Notes under the pieces: generated by a model | Databases searched by the model: none | Seen by the model: only the letters and a program-made list of their open reading frames with translations | Told to the model about the DNA's origin: nothing | Shown here: piece by piece, positions 32,531 through 36,601 of the stretch | Numbering within the stretch: position 1 is the stretch's first letter | Layout: every line of letters begins with the position of its first letter | Program-made: the position numbers and the translations under genes | Source: an uncultured Acidobacteriaceae bacterium | Lineage (GTDB): Bacteria; Acidobacteriota; Terriglobia; Terriglobales; Acidobacteriaceae | DNA: 64,000 nucleotides | Assembly: GCA_963760415.1 (NCBI GenBank) | Contig: CAVXDA010000015.1 | Location: forward strand, 168,184-232,183 | Direction of reading: 5' to 3'

Positions 32531-33374
32531 GTGTGGATGCGTGAATGGCTCAACAACTTGGTGGCAGACCCGTGGCTTGTTGCGACTGCGGCTTCTCAAC
32601 TATTACTTGCGTTGTTGGGGGCCATCGTAACGCTACAAGAGGATTGGGCAAAACGCCACCGATGGCTTCTATTGACAGCATTTGCCTGTGCTGGGATCCT
32701 TAGGGTTCATGGCGACCCTAAAACAAGGAATCGGTTCAGCGGCAGCTAGTACGAGTCTTGCCAATAGCCTCCATGGTTTGGGAAGAGCTACTGCCGAAAT
32801 CAGCCGGATAACTTCGCTGAACACTCAATTACAGGAACAACTATTAAAGCAGGGTGACACAATATCTGATCTAGCGAAGCAAAATATAGCAACAGCCACG
32901 GGAGGCGACAGCTTCTGCTTCGTCCGTTTCCTGTTCGAGGGTTCAACTGGGGGCATACTCCTCCTTCAGAGCGGGCGCTACCCTTTGGCCGACGTTATCA
33001 TGCGCACAATCGACGAGGACTCATTAAAGGAAGATACTCAACTGATAACCATCGGAACGCTGCCGGTACGTGGTTACAGGCACTTGCGCAAAGTCGCAAT
33101 GCCGGATGTATCAGAAAAGAGGTTTATAACCATGTTCACTGCGCGAAATGGGGCATGGGATCAATTTATATTGCTGCGCCGAGATACGAACAAGCGATGG
33201 CATTTTGCCACGCAGGTTGTAGAGAATAAGGGACAGGTAAAGTACAAGGAATTACTTCGCGAGGGCAAACACCCAATCTTTACCGCAATCGACCCTGGGT
33301 TCCCGGGAACAGTGACGGAAGCTACGTGGAGTTCGTTCAACGGGTTAGAAAGGTTTTGTCTCAATTGCAAATGA
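32531..33374 (+). pseudogene. Orphan AT-richer gene: a two-TM N-terminus, a coiled-coil-like segment and an unknown ~150-aa C-terminal domain. It is either one gene with a frameshift near 32700 or two overlapping ORFs.
   Basis: ORF 32531-32749 reads (..WLVATAASQLLLALLGAIVTL..WLLLTAFACAGIL). The TM helix continues in ORF 32682-33374 as (GFMATLKQG...SLNTQLQEQLLKQGDTISDLAKQN...). Codons such as tta, ata and aaa are frequent, and GC is visibly lower than in the neighbours. Confidence 0.5.
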
Positions 33375-33497
33375 TTCGACCATCCTCTCCAACTAATGCC
33401 TTGTATTCGAGTCGCTCAGCTTGGAGCGGTCTTAAGAGCGATTGTCATGAGGTATCACTGCGTCGCCCTGCGAACTTCCGTTCTGTCTCACGGGATG

Positions 33498-33602
33498 GGC
33501 GGGACTTCGTCGAGGTGGAGGTACTTCTGGTATTCTTCGGGGGTCAGGTTGCGAGTGACGCGAGAGCGTGCGAGAGTAAAGCAGTGCCAGAGTTGCTATC
33601 CT
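33498..33602 (-). pseudogene. Remnant 3' fragment of a second WD40-type gene (C-terminal 34 codons only)
   Basis: The minus strand reads (TAG stop)QLWHCFTLARSRVTRNLTPEEYQKYLHLDEVPPIP*. This parallels the true C-terminus of the neighbouring gene, ...LMELARQRVTAHPSDEGCKKYLGVDKCPPVP. Confidence 0.5.
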
Positions 33603-33799: not shown

Positions 33800-36601
33800 C
33801 TACCACCAGGGGAGATTAGGAACCGGCGGGCACTTGTCCACCCCAAGATATTTCTTGCAGCCTTCGTCGGAGGGATGGGCGGTGACACGCTGCCGGGCGA
33901 GTTCCATCAGGTCGCGAATGTCCATGGCGTAGATTTGCACCGTCCCGTCCTCACTCGCCGTCGCCAGCCGCTTGCCGTCCGGGCTCCAGGCCACGCTCTA
34001 AACAGAACCGCTATGGCCGCGCAAGGTCAGCAATTCCTGGCCGCTGGCGGCATCCCACACCTTGGCCGTCTTGTCCTCACTCCCCGTCGCCAGCCGCTTG
34101 CCGTCCGGGCTCCAAGCCACGCTCCAACACAATCGCCATGGCCGCGCAAGGTCAGCAGTTCCTGGCCGCTGGCGGCATCCCACACCTTGGCCGTCTTGTC
34201 CCCACTCCCCGTCGCCAGCCGCTTGCCGTCCGGGCTCCAGGCCACGCTCGTAACCATCATCGTCGATGGCCGCGCAAGGTCAGCAGATTCCTGGCCGCTG
34301 GCGGCATCCCACACCTTGGCCGTCTCGTCCACACTCCCCGTCGCCAGCCGCTTGCCGTCCGGGCTCCAGGCCACGCTCTACAACAGCTTCGTCATGGCCG
34401 CGCAAGGTCAGCAGTTCCTGGCCGCTGGCGGCATCCCACACCTTGGCCGTCTCGTCCCAACTCCCCGTCGCCAGCCGCTTGCCGTCCGGGCTCCAGGCCA
34501 CGCTCAAAACAGAAGCACCATGGCCGCGCAAGGTCAGCAGTTCCTGGCCGCTGGCGGCATCCCACACCTTGGCCGTCTTGTCCTCACTCCCCGTCGCCAG
34601 CCGCTTGCCGTCCGGGCTCCAGGCCACGCTCAAAACAGAAGCGCCATGGCCGCGCAGGGTCAGCAGTTCCTGGCCGCTGGCGGCATCCCACACCTTGGCC
34701 GTCTTGTCCCCACTCCCCGTCGCCAGCCGCTTGCCGTCCGGGCTCCAGGCCACGCTCCAAACAGAGCCGCCATGGCCGCGCAAGGTCAGCAGTTCCTGGC
34801 CGCTGGCGGCATCCCACACCTTGGCCGTCTCGTCATCACTCGCCGTCGCCAGCCGCTTGCCGTCCGGGCTCCAGGCCACGCTCGTAACAGGGTCGCTGTG
34901 GCCGCGCAAGGTCAGCAGTTCCTGGCCGTGACGGCATCCCACACCTTGGCCGTCTCGTCAGAACTCGCTGTCGCCAGCCGCTTGCCGTCCGGGCTCCAGG
35001 CCACGCTGGTACTAACAAGGACCATGGCCGCGCAAGGTCAGCAGTTCTTGACCGCTGACAGCATCCCACACCTTCGCCGCTTGTCCACACTCGCCGTCGC
35101 CAGACCGCTTACCGTCCGGGCTCCAGGCCACGCTCACAGGTGGGATTTGTCGAGGCCCCGCAGCGTCGGCAAGTCCAAGTCACGCAAGGTCAGCAGTTCC
35201 TGGCCGCTGGCGGCATCCCACACCTTGGCCGTCTTGTCCCAGCTGCCCGTCGCCAGCCGCTTGCCGTCCGGGCTCCAGGCTACGCTGTACACAGAGCCGG
35301 CGTGGCCGCGCAGGGTCAGCAGTTCCTTTCCGCTGGCCGCGTCCCACACTTTCGCCGTCTGGTCATCACTCCCCGTCGCCAGCCGCTTGCCGTCCGGGCT
35401 CCAGGCCACGCTCGTCAACAGAGTCATTGTGGCCGCGCAGGGTCAGCACTTCCTTGCCCGTGGCCGCGTCCCACACCTTCGCCGTCTGGTCATCACTCGC
35501 CGTCGCCACGCGCCTGCCGTCGGGGCTCCAGGCCACGCTCTCAACAGCTTCGTTGTGGCCGCGCAGGGTCAGCAGTTCCTGGCCGCTGGCGGCATCCCAC
35601 ACCTTGGCCGTCTGGTCCCCACTCGCCGTCGCCAGCCGCTTGCCGTCCGGGCTCCAGGCCACGCTGTCAACGCCGTCGTCATGGCCGCGCAAGGTCAGCC
35701 TCACATGGGAGGCCATGATGGCGCGATGTAATTCGTCGTTCCGCCTCGGGAAGAACGCGTGTGGCCCCATGGCCAGGTGGCGGCCACAGCATGGGCTGCG
35801 AACAGCACCGAGAGCTCAGGATCGCTGTCCTCATTCGAGATGGAGCTTGCGACCAACTGGCGAGCGCGGGCAACGGCCCGCTGGTAGAACGCAAACCCCG
35901 CTGCAACGAGTGCCAGCAACAGCAGTATTCCCAGCGCCAGCGAGTAGCGGCGGAAGCGCTTCGCCTGCCGTGCCTCCTGCGCACTCAACTCGGTGAGGCG
36001 CCTGATTTCTCCGGCTTCCCATTCCTCACTGGCGCGGACGTACTGTTCCTGAAGCTTCGTCGGTTTGCGCCCTTTGATTGGGCCTGCCTGGTCAAGCCAT
36101 CGGACGGCTTCCTTCAACTCCATCCCACGCAGAAGGAAGCCTTCATCGTGATTCTTCGATTTCCACTCGAGTTGAACGTAGCAGGAATTGGGTGTGCTTG
36201 CGCTCCCATTCGAAGTCGGTGTCGAGGGCCTTAATCAACCGCTCGAACGTCTGCTCGAAGCCCAGATTCGGGTAATCAATCCACTGAATGTCCGCGAGTG
36301 CCGCAAGCAGTTCCTCGTCCCCAATTGAGTGATAGAGGATGGTGATAAGCCGCTTGTTGTTGGCAACGGCATGAGAGACTTCTTGCCCGCACATCCATGA
36401 CTTGACGGAATCGGGGCTGATGACGAACAGGAAGTTGTCAGCGGCCTCGATAGCCGCAAAGATCTCCGCCCGCCACTTGGCGGAGTCGGGAATGCTGCGC
36501 CAGTCAATCCAGGTGTCGCGATTCACCTTCTGAAGCGCGGCATGGATGTCGCGAGCGAATCCCTGATCTTCCCGCGCATACGAGATGAACACCTCGGCCA
36601 T
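33800..36601 (-). pseudogene. TIR - linker - single TM - 14x WD40 repeat protein, with many frameshifts inside the repeat array (as assembled)
   Basis: The N-terminal TIR reads MAEVFISYAREDQGFARDIHAALQKVNRDTWIDWRSIP...FLFVISPDSVKSWMCGQEVSHAV. Next come LEWKSKNHDEGFLLRGMELKEAVRWL and the TM helix YSLALGILLLLALVAAGFAFY. There are 14 units of type [42 protein letters not shown]. The C-terminus is ...CKKYLGVDKCPPVPNLPWW*. Confidence 0.85.
33890..35700 (-). repeat. Tandem 126-bp coding repeats (WD40 units) with very high nucleotide identity
   Basis: gccgtccgggctccaggccacgct recurs 14 times at about 126-bp spacing (about 33973, 34100, 34230, 34357, 34483, 34609, 34735, 34861, 34987, 35110, 35265, 35390, 35516, 35645). 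Long identical blocks such as ggtcagcagttcctggccgctggcggcatcccacaccttggccgtc also recur. Confidence 0.9.

Follow-up and report, generated by a model that had tools for sequence, protein, structure and literature searches.

A TIR-WD40 gene of an uncultured Acidobacteriaceae bacterium with a probably recently homogenised repeat array and a variable predicted top face

The 64,000-nt stretch analysed here, from the genome of an uncultured soil bacterium of the Acidobacteriaceae (contig CAVXDA010000015.1, hereafter the window) carries on its minus strand a gene for a TIR-WD40 protein, of which the WD40 array is the sensor part and in which an NTPase module is lacking. The array is likely to have been recently homogenised, to keep a variable face under selection and to owe the breaks of its reading frame in the main to consensus errors. 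Members of this TIR-WD40 family are common across Acidobacteriaceae, cyanobacteria and Chloroflexota.

We propose that the 126-nt units were homogenised recently by unequal recombination or gene conversion, the pattern of differences pointing to units 7-13 as a very young core, and that six codons per unit stay different; on the two predicted propellers of seven blades each, these codons would make up the top (ligand-binding) face. Recombination would keep the scaffold uniform, selection for varied contact residues would keep or renew the diversity of the face, and the outcome would be a recognition surface that can quickly be re-tuned. By analogy with other bacterial conflict systems and with the family, the N-terminal TIR domain would be activated once the propellers bind a ligand. 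The frame breaks would mostly be consensus errors, worsened by the repeat and possibly by strain mixture.

Parts of the gene and its surroundings

As assembled, the gene consists of at least seven ORF pieces, and its conceptual product is ~920 aa long. The features are as follows.

33800..36601, minus strand: whole gene, TIR - linker/TM - 14 WD40 units - tail (three-frame translation)
36180..36601, minus strand: TIR domain (TIR_2; Pfam PF13676, E = 6e-26, full-length match)
36166..36173, minus strand: frameshift 1 (+1, frame 0 to 1), at the TIR/linker boundary, non-repeat region
35884..35946, minus strand: hydrophobic helix YSLALGILLLLALVAAGFAFY, single predicted membrane span (from the translation)
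35736..35760, minus strand: frameshifts 2 and 3 (both +1, frame 1 to 2 to 0), directly upstream of the array
33925..35686, minus strand: 14 WD40 units of 126 nt (42 codons) (Tandem Repeats Finder, anchors, Pfam, PDB 2YMU)
35135..35181, minus strand: non-canonical junction of 47 nt (21 nt expected) between units 4 and 5
34280..34942, minus strand: longest intact stretch, a 220-aa ORF with units 7-10 in frame (ORF list)
33998..34000, minus strand: in-frame TAG at codon 7 (hypervariable) of unit 14 (translation)
33800..33924, minus strand: conserved C-terminal tail ending in AMDIRDLMELARQRVTAHPSDEGCKKYLGVDKCPPVPNLPWW and a stop codon (translation, homologue comparison)
33488..33595, minus strand: relic tail left by a second TIR-WD40 gene, of the other subfamily (LARSRVTRNLTPEEYQKYLHLDEVPPIP*), with a stop before it

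Intact homologues of 917-992 aa have the same order of parts. The TIR domain also has weaker matches to ThsB-type TIR models (PADLOC), and its SWMCGQE motif holds the conserved Glu, invariant (E74) in a nine-sequence alignment, whose catalytic role we take to be that of the TIR family; judged by sequence, the domain is probably an NADase. The TIR-to-WD40 distance is ~170 residues, and the linker of the homologues is equally short. The hydrophobic helix recurs in G010, P0001-3, P0013, P0014, P0031 and P0033; in G012, P0006, P0008 and P0022 a charged coiled coil takes its place. The C-terminal tail is nearly identical in G010, P0002, P0013, P0014 and P0031. Pfam returned no match for the 140-aa linker ORF, which spans most of the TIR-WD40 gap, and no P-loop module in either the window gene or the intact 969-aa homologue, G010; among the Pfam matches listed for the latter, all are WD40 or beta-propeller families. 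In PADLOC, only generic TIR (ThsB-like) models and one repeat model were matched, and the whole protein fits none of the defence system models.

The relic tail lies 200 nt downstream of the gene, and the same tail ends the homologues G012, L038, L041, L042 and P0006. The flanking kdpE, mtnP and pfkB are free of frame breaks, and an adjacent ORF (32682-33374) matches neither Pfam nor PADLOC models. An independent assembly of the same species was sought by exact look-ups with the adjacent MTAP, PfkB and KdpE proteins, and none was found; the closest metagenome loci share 68% identity over the full query and 88% over short partial matches.

Variable codons in a homogenised scaffold

Tandem Repeats Finder gives a period of 126 nt and 13.7 copies between 33940 and 35699. 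Fourteen units, the number counted in a sequence-only reading that preceded this work, were located on the minus strand by the anchor GCGTGGCCTGGAGCCC, at 35664, 35538, 35411, 35285, 35133, 35006 and 34881 (units 1-7) and at 34755, 34629, 34503, 34376, 34247, 34122 and 33996 (units 8-14). The WD40 identity of the 220-aa piece is supported by Pfam (PF00400, E = 8e-61), and the best PDB match of the array is 2YMU (E = 1.3e-166). The five unit peptides quoted by that reading are exact, ORF 34280-34942 holding units 7-10 and ORF 35134-35427 holding unit 4, and the identical blocks of 40-60 nt that it described correspond to blocks of 45 and 57 nt bounded by variable codons. Its central claim, that the units are near-identical and differ at a few codons, was borne out, units 7-13 being almost identical outside six codons. 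It had further reported a spacing of 155 bp as the possible boundary between two propellers. The spacing, between the anchors of units 4 and 5 (35285 to 35133), is actually 152 nt, and the junction encodes DLDLPTLR, the head GLDKSHL and 2 extra nt; DLDLPTLR has the look of a partial strand D copy (ELLTLR) that has diverged. As 14 blades of the WRAP-like type fold as 7+7 (PMC9218822), a boundary would be expected between units 7 and 8, and the junction was ruled out as the propeller boundary.

The variable codons of the 42-codon unit are 3, 4, 5, 7, 23 and 25. Mean nucleotide diversity is 0.445 at these six and 0.056 at the other 36, in agreement with the proposed clustering of substitutions at positions 3-5 and 7 and in the GSxDxT turn. 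About 79% of the nonsynonymous pairwise differences fall in the six codons, and pN/pS is 1.42 there versus 0.14 elsewhere, a value above 1 that is not an independent test because the six codons were picked after the data had been seen. An even spread of differences that includes synonymous sites, which would have spoken against the earlier claim, is not what the units display: in units 7-13, 13/18 sites of the six codons vary versus 2/36 scaffold third positions (Fisher P = 6e-7), and in units 8-12 the counts are 9/18 and 0/36. The per-codon diversity and nonsynonymous/synonymous comparison it had suggested, carried out on the assembled units, thus places the clustering far beyond chance. The variable residues of units 3, 5, 6, 11, 12 and 13 are not confidently readable because indels sit there. 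Across the family, entropy likewise peaks at these positions (Spearman 0.68); the intact L074 array, from another MAG, varies at the same positions, and the L093 array at partly overlapping ones (4, 5, 23, 25).

An AlphaFold2 model of the 220-aa ORF (34280..34942) has regular four-strand blades (pLDDT 79), in which codons 3-5 correspond to the D-A loop, strand A begins at codon 7 and codons 23/25 lie in the B-C turn. In this model these elements are the top face of the propeller, where the sequence-only reading had put the variable positions; the bottom loops are invariant.

The scaffold is unusually uniform. Its third-position identity is 0.907 within the array versus 0.46-0.77 in 11 related arrays, and the mean pairwise amino-acid identity is 0.88 (13 units) versus an internal identity of 0.34-0.81 in 17 homologues. 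The units are each other's nearest neighbours and only unit 14 pairs with its counterpart, unit 14 of the intact G010, from which it follows that the array was homogenised in this lineage. All four allele combinations occur in 14 of 28 informative scaffold site pairs (8 of 21 when the ambiguous codon 34 is left out), and the units are therefore mosaics, with the reservation that some of these pairs could stem from recurrent mutation. The same test applied to codons 23 vs 25 was discarded, K/E being a single transition for which recurrent change is likely. No further copy of the unit exists anywhere in the genome, which rules out both a DGR-type template and conversion from a paralogue at another locus; two signs of a DGR target are likewise missing, as the genome has no template repeat and the changes are not adenine-specific, the variable codons differing at all four bases.

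Concerted evolution, as put forward earlier, thus stands as homogenisation at the DNA level within this lineage, and an ongoing process is not cleanly separable from a recent re-amplification. Alternatively, one blade could have been re-amplified in a single recent event ('amplify and differentiate' in the sense of Lupas), which would account for the near-identity, the six codons being the first to differentiate. We regard this as possible but doubtful. Units 8-12 lack any synonymous scaffold difference, as described for Npun_R6612, and closely related WRAP propellers have been amplified independently (Pereira and Lupas 2022, PMC9218822). A single event is, however, at odds with the graded ages of the units, of which 2, 3 and 5 look older and 14 is still orthologous to that of G010, and with the scaffold polymorphisms that the units share in mosaic combinations; in addition, multi-nucleotide differences at the six codons, with synonymous change at zero, call for exchange with older units or else for very strong selection. 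Re-amplification and concerted evolution use the same machinery of unequal recombination and are unlike in tempo rather than in kind.

Frame breaks and other readings of the variation

The frame of the array is broken by ~10 indel events and the in-frame TAG in the repeats, with three more frameshifts upstream, at sites where homologues run on unbroken (...RA.EWE... at frameshift 1; WPWGH.VLPEAE..LHRAI at frameshifts 2 and 3). The 13 events of the gene comprise 10 insertions and 3 deletions, and all 3 non-repeat events are +1. Assembly-wide, 22 frame breaks occur in 113.7 kb of conserved genes (~1 per 5 kb), 20 of them +1, in clusters 190-500 nt apart. Because the whole assembly is indel-prone, the breaks are probably consensus errors in the main. 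That most lesions of the gene are artefacts we hold to be fairly probable; the odds that one or more of them, for instance the TAG, are genuine mutations are somewhat below even, the TAG being a substitution and not an indel. The source assembly is most likely Nanopore-only; G010 and G012, genus relatives with homologues, come from Nanopore-only Flye+Medaka MAGs.

The gene may instead be a genuinely decaying pseudogene, whose indels and stop accumulated as real mutations once the sensor was no longer of use, although we consider this rather unlikely. Lesion density is 4.7 per kb in the gene, 24 times the genome mean. Outside the repeats, over 850 nt, it still reaches 3.5 per kb, roughly double the value of the worst gene among 73 conserved ones. 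The in-frame TAG, the intact neighbouring housekeeping genes and the second TIR-WD40 relic tail downstream fit decay, as does the rapid birth-and-death turnover described for this propeller type, many WRAP-like propellers being disrupted by frameshifts or stops (PMC9218822). Related arrays are broken as well, real single frameshifts being frequent in this clade: 4 of 10 on JGI metagenome contigs, which we take to be short-read assemblies, have a single frameshift, and so has G012. On the other hand, 13 lesions next to almost no scaffold substitutions in units 7-13 make an implausible ratio for neutral decay. The excess of insertions and the three +1 non-repeat events reproduce the error signature of the assembly, and this excess opposes the usual mutational bias of bacteria toward deletion. 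Furthermore, the related JGI contigs have one break at most, and the multi-break arrays (L073, L085 and that of the window) are all from long-read MAG-type assemblies. The proportion of broken arrays in Nanopore MAGs (4/13) versus other assemblies (~1/45) is confounded by clade and was dropped as proof of artefact, since the acidobacterial JGI contigs show 4/10; exactly one break is present in 30-40% of acidobacterial arrays, in JGI contigs and long-read MAGs alike.

It is improbable that the variable codons are an unconstrained surface that drifts neutrally, with no selection for diversity. In all homologues, those with non-homogenised arrays included, variability is highest at the same positions, as relaxed constraint would also predict. 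Neutral sites cannot, however, outpace synonymous ones, as the six codons of units 8-12 do when half of their sites vary next to unvarying scaffold third positions, and homogenisation would erase neutral differences along with those of the scaffold.

We give only a slim chance to the variable codons being, besides selected, real mutational hot spots, at which repair of the clustered mismatches left by conversion between differing units would create new codons and occasional indels, so that the face would be re-tuned and the TIR sensor toggled within a population in a manner resembling phase variation. Hints of this are the 6 of 10 repeat indels that lie within the variable head, the 2 of 5 single frameshifts of related arrays (four JGI contigs and G012) that lie in codons 23-26, and the frequency of arrays with exactly one break.

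It is very unlikely that the homogeneity was made by the assembler or polisher, which would have stacked reads of different units or of co-existing strains and so evened out the scaffold and scrambled the variable codons: the assembly is error-prone, the tendency of repeat indels to fall in the variable head of 21 nt (binomial P = 0.002) is what mixed pile-ups predict and highly conserved repeat arrays need careful long-read reconstruction (PMC12222747), but (i) the array has a proper first and last unit and 14 units, the family norm, so that the unit count is not collapsed; (ii) the variable codons are distinct and well formed in each unit; (iii) the intact L074 array has the same unit type and variable positions, and L093, whose positions overlap in part, belongs to a MAG with a MEGAHIT-style contig name; and (iv) long reads easily span an array of 1.8 kb. 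Such arrays draw consensus errors in Nanopore-only MAGs exactly at the informative codons, and without reads neither their variable-codon residues nor 'pseudogene' calls are trustworthy there.

Comparison with known repeat sensors and TIR effectors

If the preferred reading of a recently homogenised array with a selected face is true, an NTPase-free, probably membrane-anchored acidobacterial case is added to the known class of WD40 recognition domains that evolve fast and are linked to TIR effectors, and the arrays of one gene family would range from fully differentiated to freshly homogenised. Repeat recombination would thereby gain support as a general microbial route to renewed recognition surfaces.

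The propeller of Nostoc punctiforme Npun_R6612 (PDB 2YMU), called WRAP and reportedly treated by Dunin-Horkawicz in 2014, is the closest solved structure to the array. Homogenised blades with a variable face are the already known "highly repetitive WD40" or WRAP pattern of bacteria and fungi, and the closest described cases are bacterial: the HR WD40 proteins (PMC5587647) and the WRAP branch (PMC9218822, PDB 2YMU). HR WD40 repeats have diverse hotspot sites in otherwise conserved repeats (Hu 2017, PMC5587647). The array resembles them in its internal identity (> 0.7 there; 0.88 over 13 units here, a measure unlike Hu's 8 contiguous repeats), in its 14 repeats, which suggest two domains, in conservation except at the predicted top-face hotspots and in an inferred origin by recent repeat duplication. 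Its repeats are bona fide WD40 repeats by PF00400 and by the four-strand blades of the AlphaFold2 model, and they are diverse at the top face. The N-terminal partner of the window gene, a TIR domain with a membrane helix, and its acidobacterial host go undiscussed for these proteins; the words 'TIR' and 'Acidobacteria' are absent from the text of Hu 2017 (PMC5587647).

The WRAP of Npun_R6612 has 14 near-identical blades arranged as two 7-bladed propellers (PMC9218822), varies at the residue following GHxxxV and has few or zero synonymous differences, and the WRAP-like family is noted both for its links to TIR-based immunity and for members that frameshifts or stops have disrupted (PMC9218822). 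Similarity to Npun_R6612 is clear from the 2YMU match, whereas the STAND ATPase that carries the WRAP, with the TIR domain on a partner protein, has no equivalent in the window gene, in which TIR and WD40 are fused without an NTPase. The array is also less uniform than the WRAP, its unit ages being graded.

The sequence-only reading had compared the array with the fungal HET-E/D/R-type NLRs. The comparison is apt as an analogy: HET-E, HET-D and HET-R of Podospora anserina likewise have 126-nt WD40 units that are near-identical at the DNA level, with variation at a few top-face codons under diversifying selection, and, according to work on these HNWD proteins cited in Dyrka 2020, reshuffling of the repeats both produces their conservation and results from it. 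NLR status does not hold. The gene has a C-terminal repeat sensor of high internal conservation, as NLR/STAND proteins do, but no central NACHT or NB-ARC module, and is therefore not an NLR. The fungal proteins, in contrast, join a HET effector to a NACHT NTPase and act in a eukaryote that has RIP and meiotic recombination; their role in allorecognition is proven. With the TIR effectors (TIR_2 / ThsB-type) the gene shares the full-length PF13676 match and the Glu of the NADase motif, and it differs from them in that TIR domain and repeat sensor are joined in one protein rather than working through a separate sensor or effector.

Layout and relatives of the TIR-WD40 gene

The WD40 repeats belong to a single gene, delimited by three-frame translation and homologue comparison:

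36601 to 33800, minus strand, whole TIR-WD40 gene

The gene opens with a TIR domain (Pfam TIR_2, E = 6e-26) that keeps the conserved Glu (invariant E74 in the alignment), followed by a linker (about 170 residues, including a single hydrophobic helix, YSLALGILLLLALVAAGFAFY), 14 WD40 units and a conserved closing tail (ending in AMDIRDLMELARQRVTAHPSDEGCKKYLGVDKCPPVPNLPWW). The array is unique, no second copy being found in the 4.47-Mb genome. The single 21-residue helix (35884-35946, minus strand) sits between TIR and WD40, with Arg/Lys more numerous towards the TIR domain. Were it a membrane span, the TIR domain would face inward and the propellers outward, an arrangement resembling that of Toll-like receptors; in about half of the homologues a charged coiled coil takes its place. 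By analogy with other TIR-sensor fusions, a ligand on the propeller faces would switch on the TIR domain as an NADase. Pfam and homologue comparison revealed no NTPase module in the gene, which places it outside the NLR/STAND class, and PADLOC returned no system matching the whole protein.

The family search gave at least 500 proteins at E <= 0.001 among 8000 candidates scored. As judged from the top of the match list, this large family has hosts among Acidobacteriaceae, cyanobacteria, Chloroflexota and others, and its members have 7 or 14 blades and a common tail, while their source names are just "TIR domain-containing protein" or "WD40 repeat protein". The acidobacterial MAG MFD05377.bin.2.25 carries three paralogous genes (L070, L073 and L074) with internal repeat identities of 0.43, 0.67 and 0.73, respectively, and three frame switches in the middle one. 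The intact homologue of the related genome G010, L014, lies in a mobile-looking island (G010:C1 239-10438), beside the following genes:

G010:C1 239-1261, phage-type integrase
G010:C1 3855-4892, minus strand, second membrane-anchored TIR protein
G010:C1 9404-10438, IS110-type transposase

Variable codons and homogenisation of the array

Tandem Repeats Finder reports a 126-nt period with 13.7 copies (33940-35699, repeat on the minus strand), and an anchor search yields 14 units with spacings of 126, 127, 126, 152, 127, 125, 126, 126, 126, 127, 129, 125 and 126 nt. The sequence-only reading proposed that these units differ in a few codons; the five peptides it quoted are exact and represent units 7-10 and unit 4. 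In a codon-by-codon alignment with indels placed by hand, mean nucleotide diversity is 0.445 in codons 3, 4, 5, 7, 23 and 25 versus 0.056 in the remainder of the 42, about 79% of the nonsynonymous pairwise differences fall in these six codons, and pN/pS is 1.42 versus 0.14; in units 7-13, the young core, 13 of the 18 nucleotide sites of the six codons vary versus 2 of 36 scaffold third positions (Fisher P = 6e-7), and in units 8-12, 9 of 18 versus 0 of 36, the six codons having been chosen from the same data. The differences are thus clustered in a few codons as proposed, rather than spread evenly, and synonymous sites have no part in them.

AlphaFold2 modeling of the longest intact piece (220 aa) gave regular four-strand blades (pLDDT 79) and placed codons 3-5 in the loop that joins strands D and A, codon 7 at residue 2 of strand A, and codons 23 and 25 on either side of the Asp in the tight B-C turn. 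In the WD40 topology, the D-A loop, the start of strand A and the B-C turn form the top face. By this placement and topology the variable positions would lie on the top, ligand-binding face, in agreement with the sequence-only reading, and the bottom-face loops, A-B (SPDGK) and C-D (AASGQ), are nearly invariant in the array. Across 17 homologues, entropy likewise peaks at these six positions (window versus family entropies, Spearman 0.68); all six are variable in the intact array L074 and four (4, 5, 23 and 25) in L093, the array of a Crinalium MAG.

The intact homologue of G010, a genome of the same genus, has 969 aa and 14 units. Over the 66 scaffold nucleotides compared, the nearest neighbour of each window unit is another window unit, except for unit 14, which is closest to unit 14 of G010. 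Scaffold third-position identity is 0.907 within the array and 0.74 between the window and G010; nine related arrays have internal values of 0.46-0.71, and two others 0.68 and 0.77. Internal amino-acid identity (0.88) is the highest of the 18 arrays compared. The scaffold polymorphisms are mosaic among units, with all four combinations present in 14 of 28 site pairs (8 of 21 when the ambiguous codon 34 is left out). Taken together, these data indicate that the array was already present in the common ancestor with G010 and that its inner units were homogenised later in the window lineage. Concerted evolution, whether by unequal recombination or by conversion, typically spares a terminal unit, as unit 14 was spared here, and either process may have acted. 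Recent re-amplification of one blade, preferred by Pereira and Lupas for WRAP propellers (PMC9218822), would produce a comparable picture in units 8-12 and is not fully distinguishable from concerted evolution. Assembly collapse as the source of unit identity, the alternative raised by the sequence-only reading, is unlikely, since 14 units are the family norm, the first and last units are proper ones, and the variable codons are well-formed and unit-specific.

The one long spacing, given as 155 bp in that reading, measures 152 nt and lies between units 4 and 5 (35181-35135, minus strand). The extra sequence, DLDLPTLR, looks like a diverged, incomplete duplicate of strand D (ELLTLR); after it come a head of unusual sequence (GLDKSHL) and two additional bases. 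Unit length also varies in homologues, from 41 to 44 residues, and not at any one place. The proposed role of this junction as the boundary between two propellers is not supported: 14 blades of the WRAP type fold as two 7-bladed propellers (PMC9218822), hence the boundary is expected between units 7 and 8.

The broken reading frame: assembly error or decay

The frame is interrupted by three shifts, seen in translation, about 10 indel events in the repeats, and a stop codon:

About 36170, 35757 and 35739, minus strand, three +1 shifts in the non-repeat part
Units 3-6, repeat indels: head of unit 3, +1; junction 4/5, +26; unit 5, +1 and -1; head of unit 6, +1; unit 6, -1
Units 11-13, repeat indels: head of unit 11, +1; unit 11, +1; head of unit 12, +2; head of unit 13, -1
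Codon 7 of unit 14, minus strand, in-frame TAG

Six of the 10 repeat indels fall within the 21-nt variable head (binomial P = 0.002).

Most of these lesions are probably consensus errors of an error-prone assembly. In a tblastn comparison of the window genome with 400 kb of the relative G002, represented by its 73 long conserved ORFs, 22 frame breaks were found in 113.7 kb of conserved coding sequence (about 1 per 5 kb); 20 of them are +1 insertions and they are clustered (two or more in 7 genes versus 2.7 expected, often 190-500 nt apart). Split genes number 14 of the 73 (about 19%), and examples of frame-break patches are C14:461-465 kb and C2:46.2-47.2 kb of the genome and 21.4-24.1 kb of the window. 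The TIR-WD40 gene bears the signature of the assembly as a whole, with 10 insertions against 3 deletions and +1 at each of the three non-repeat events. Moreover, 13 lesions alongside nearly no substitutions in the scaffold would be an unusual balance for neutral decay, and it is precisely where units or strains differ that mixed pile-ups should break down. Two genus relatives carrying homologues, G010 and G012, are MFD MAGs, built from Nanopore reads alone with Flye and one round of Medaka (PMC12313526), and we infer the same Nanopore-only origin for the window genome. No other assembly came up when neighbouring proteins were looked up by exact match.

That at least one lesion reflects real decay is a serious but more tentative proposition. 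Lesion density is 24x the genome mean (Poisson P = 3e-14) and, outside the repeats, still about 2x that of the worst conserved gene; the genes on either side are unbroken, the TAG is due to a substitution, and the tail of a second TIR-WD40 gene survives as a relic just downstream. One frameshift occurs in 4 of 10 related acidobacterial arrays on JGI metagenome contigs and also in G012, and many WRAP-like propellers are disrupted according to the literature (PMC9218822).

The relic (33488-33595, minus strand, 200 nt downstream of the gene) is the stranded C-terminal tail (QLWHCFTLARSRVTRNLTPEEYQKYLHLDEVPPIP, then stop) of the other TIR-WD40 subfamily, the G012/P0006 type, and its position suggests a replacement of one sensor gene by another at this site. 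The frameshifted arrays (L036, L037, L039 and L040 on JGI contigs, and L013 in G012) have exactly one frameshift each, with the downstream blades all open in the new frame; it lies in the variable B-C turn codons (23-26) in L036 and L037 and in a run of seven G in L040. On a further JGI contig (Ga0207761_1001564, locus L044), an array of the same unit type stops at the contig end, 1.5 units in; its sole complete unit shares 0.895 scaffold third-position identity and 83-88% overall DNA identity with the window units. Such an end would be expected where a short-read assembly breaks off within a highly conserved array.

Comparison with known systems

The sequence-only interpretation was largely right as to clustered variable codons and homogenisation, and its guess of the propeller boundary is not supported. 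Homogenised blades with a variable face are a phenomenon already described for bacteria, seen here in a TIR-WD40 gene through an error-prone assembly. The closest solved structure to the array is the Nostoc WRAP propeller 2YMU (E = 1e-166), and the pattern of the array matches both the WRAP branch of the Lupas group and the prokaryotic Highly-Repetitive WD40 proteins, in which most sites are conserved and hotspot sites diverse (Hu et al. 2017, PMC5587647). The likeness to fungal HET-E/D/R repeats is by analogy, and NLR/STAND receptors differ from the TIR-WD40 gene in having an NTPase.
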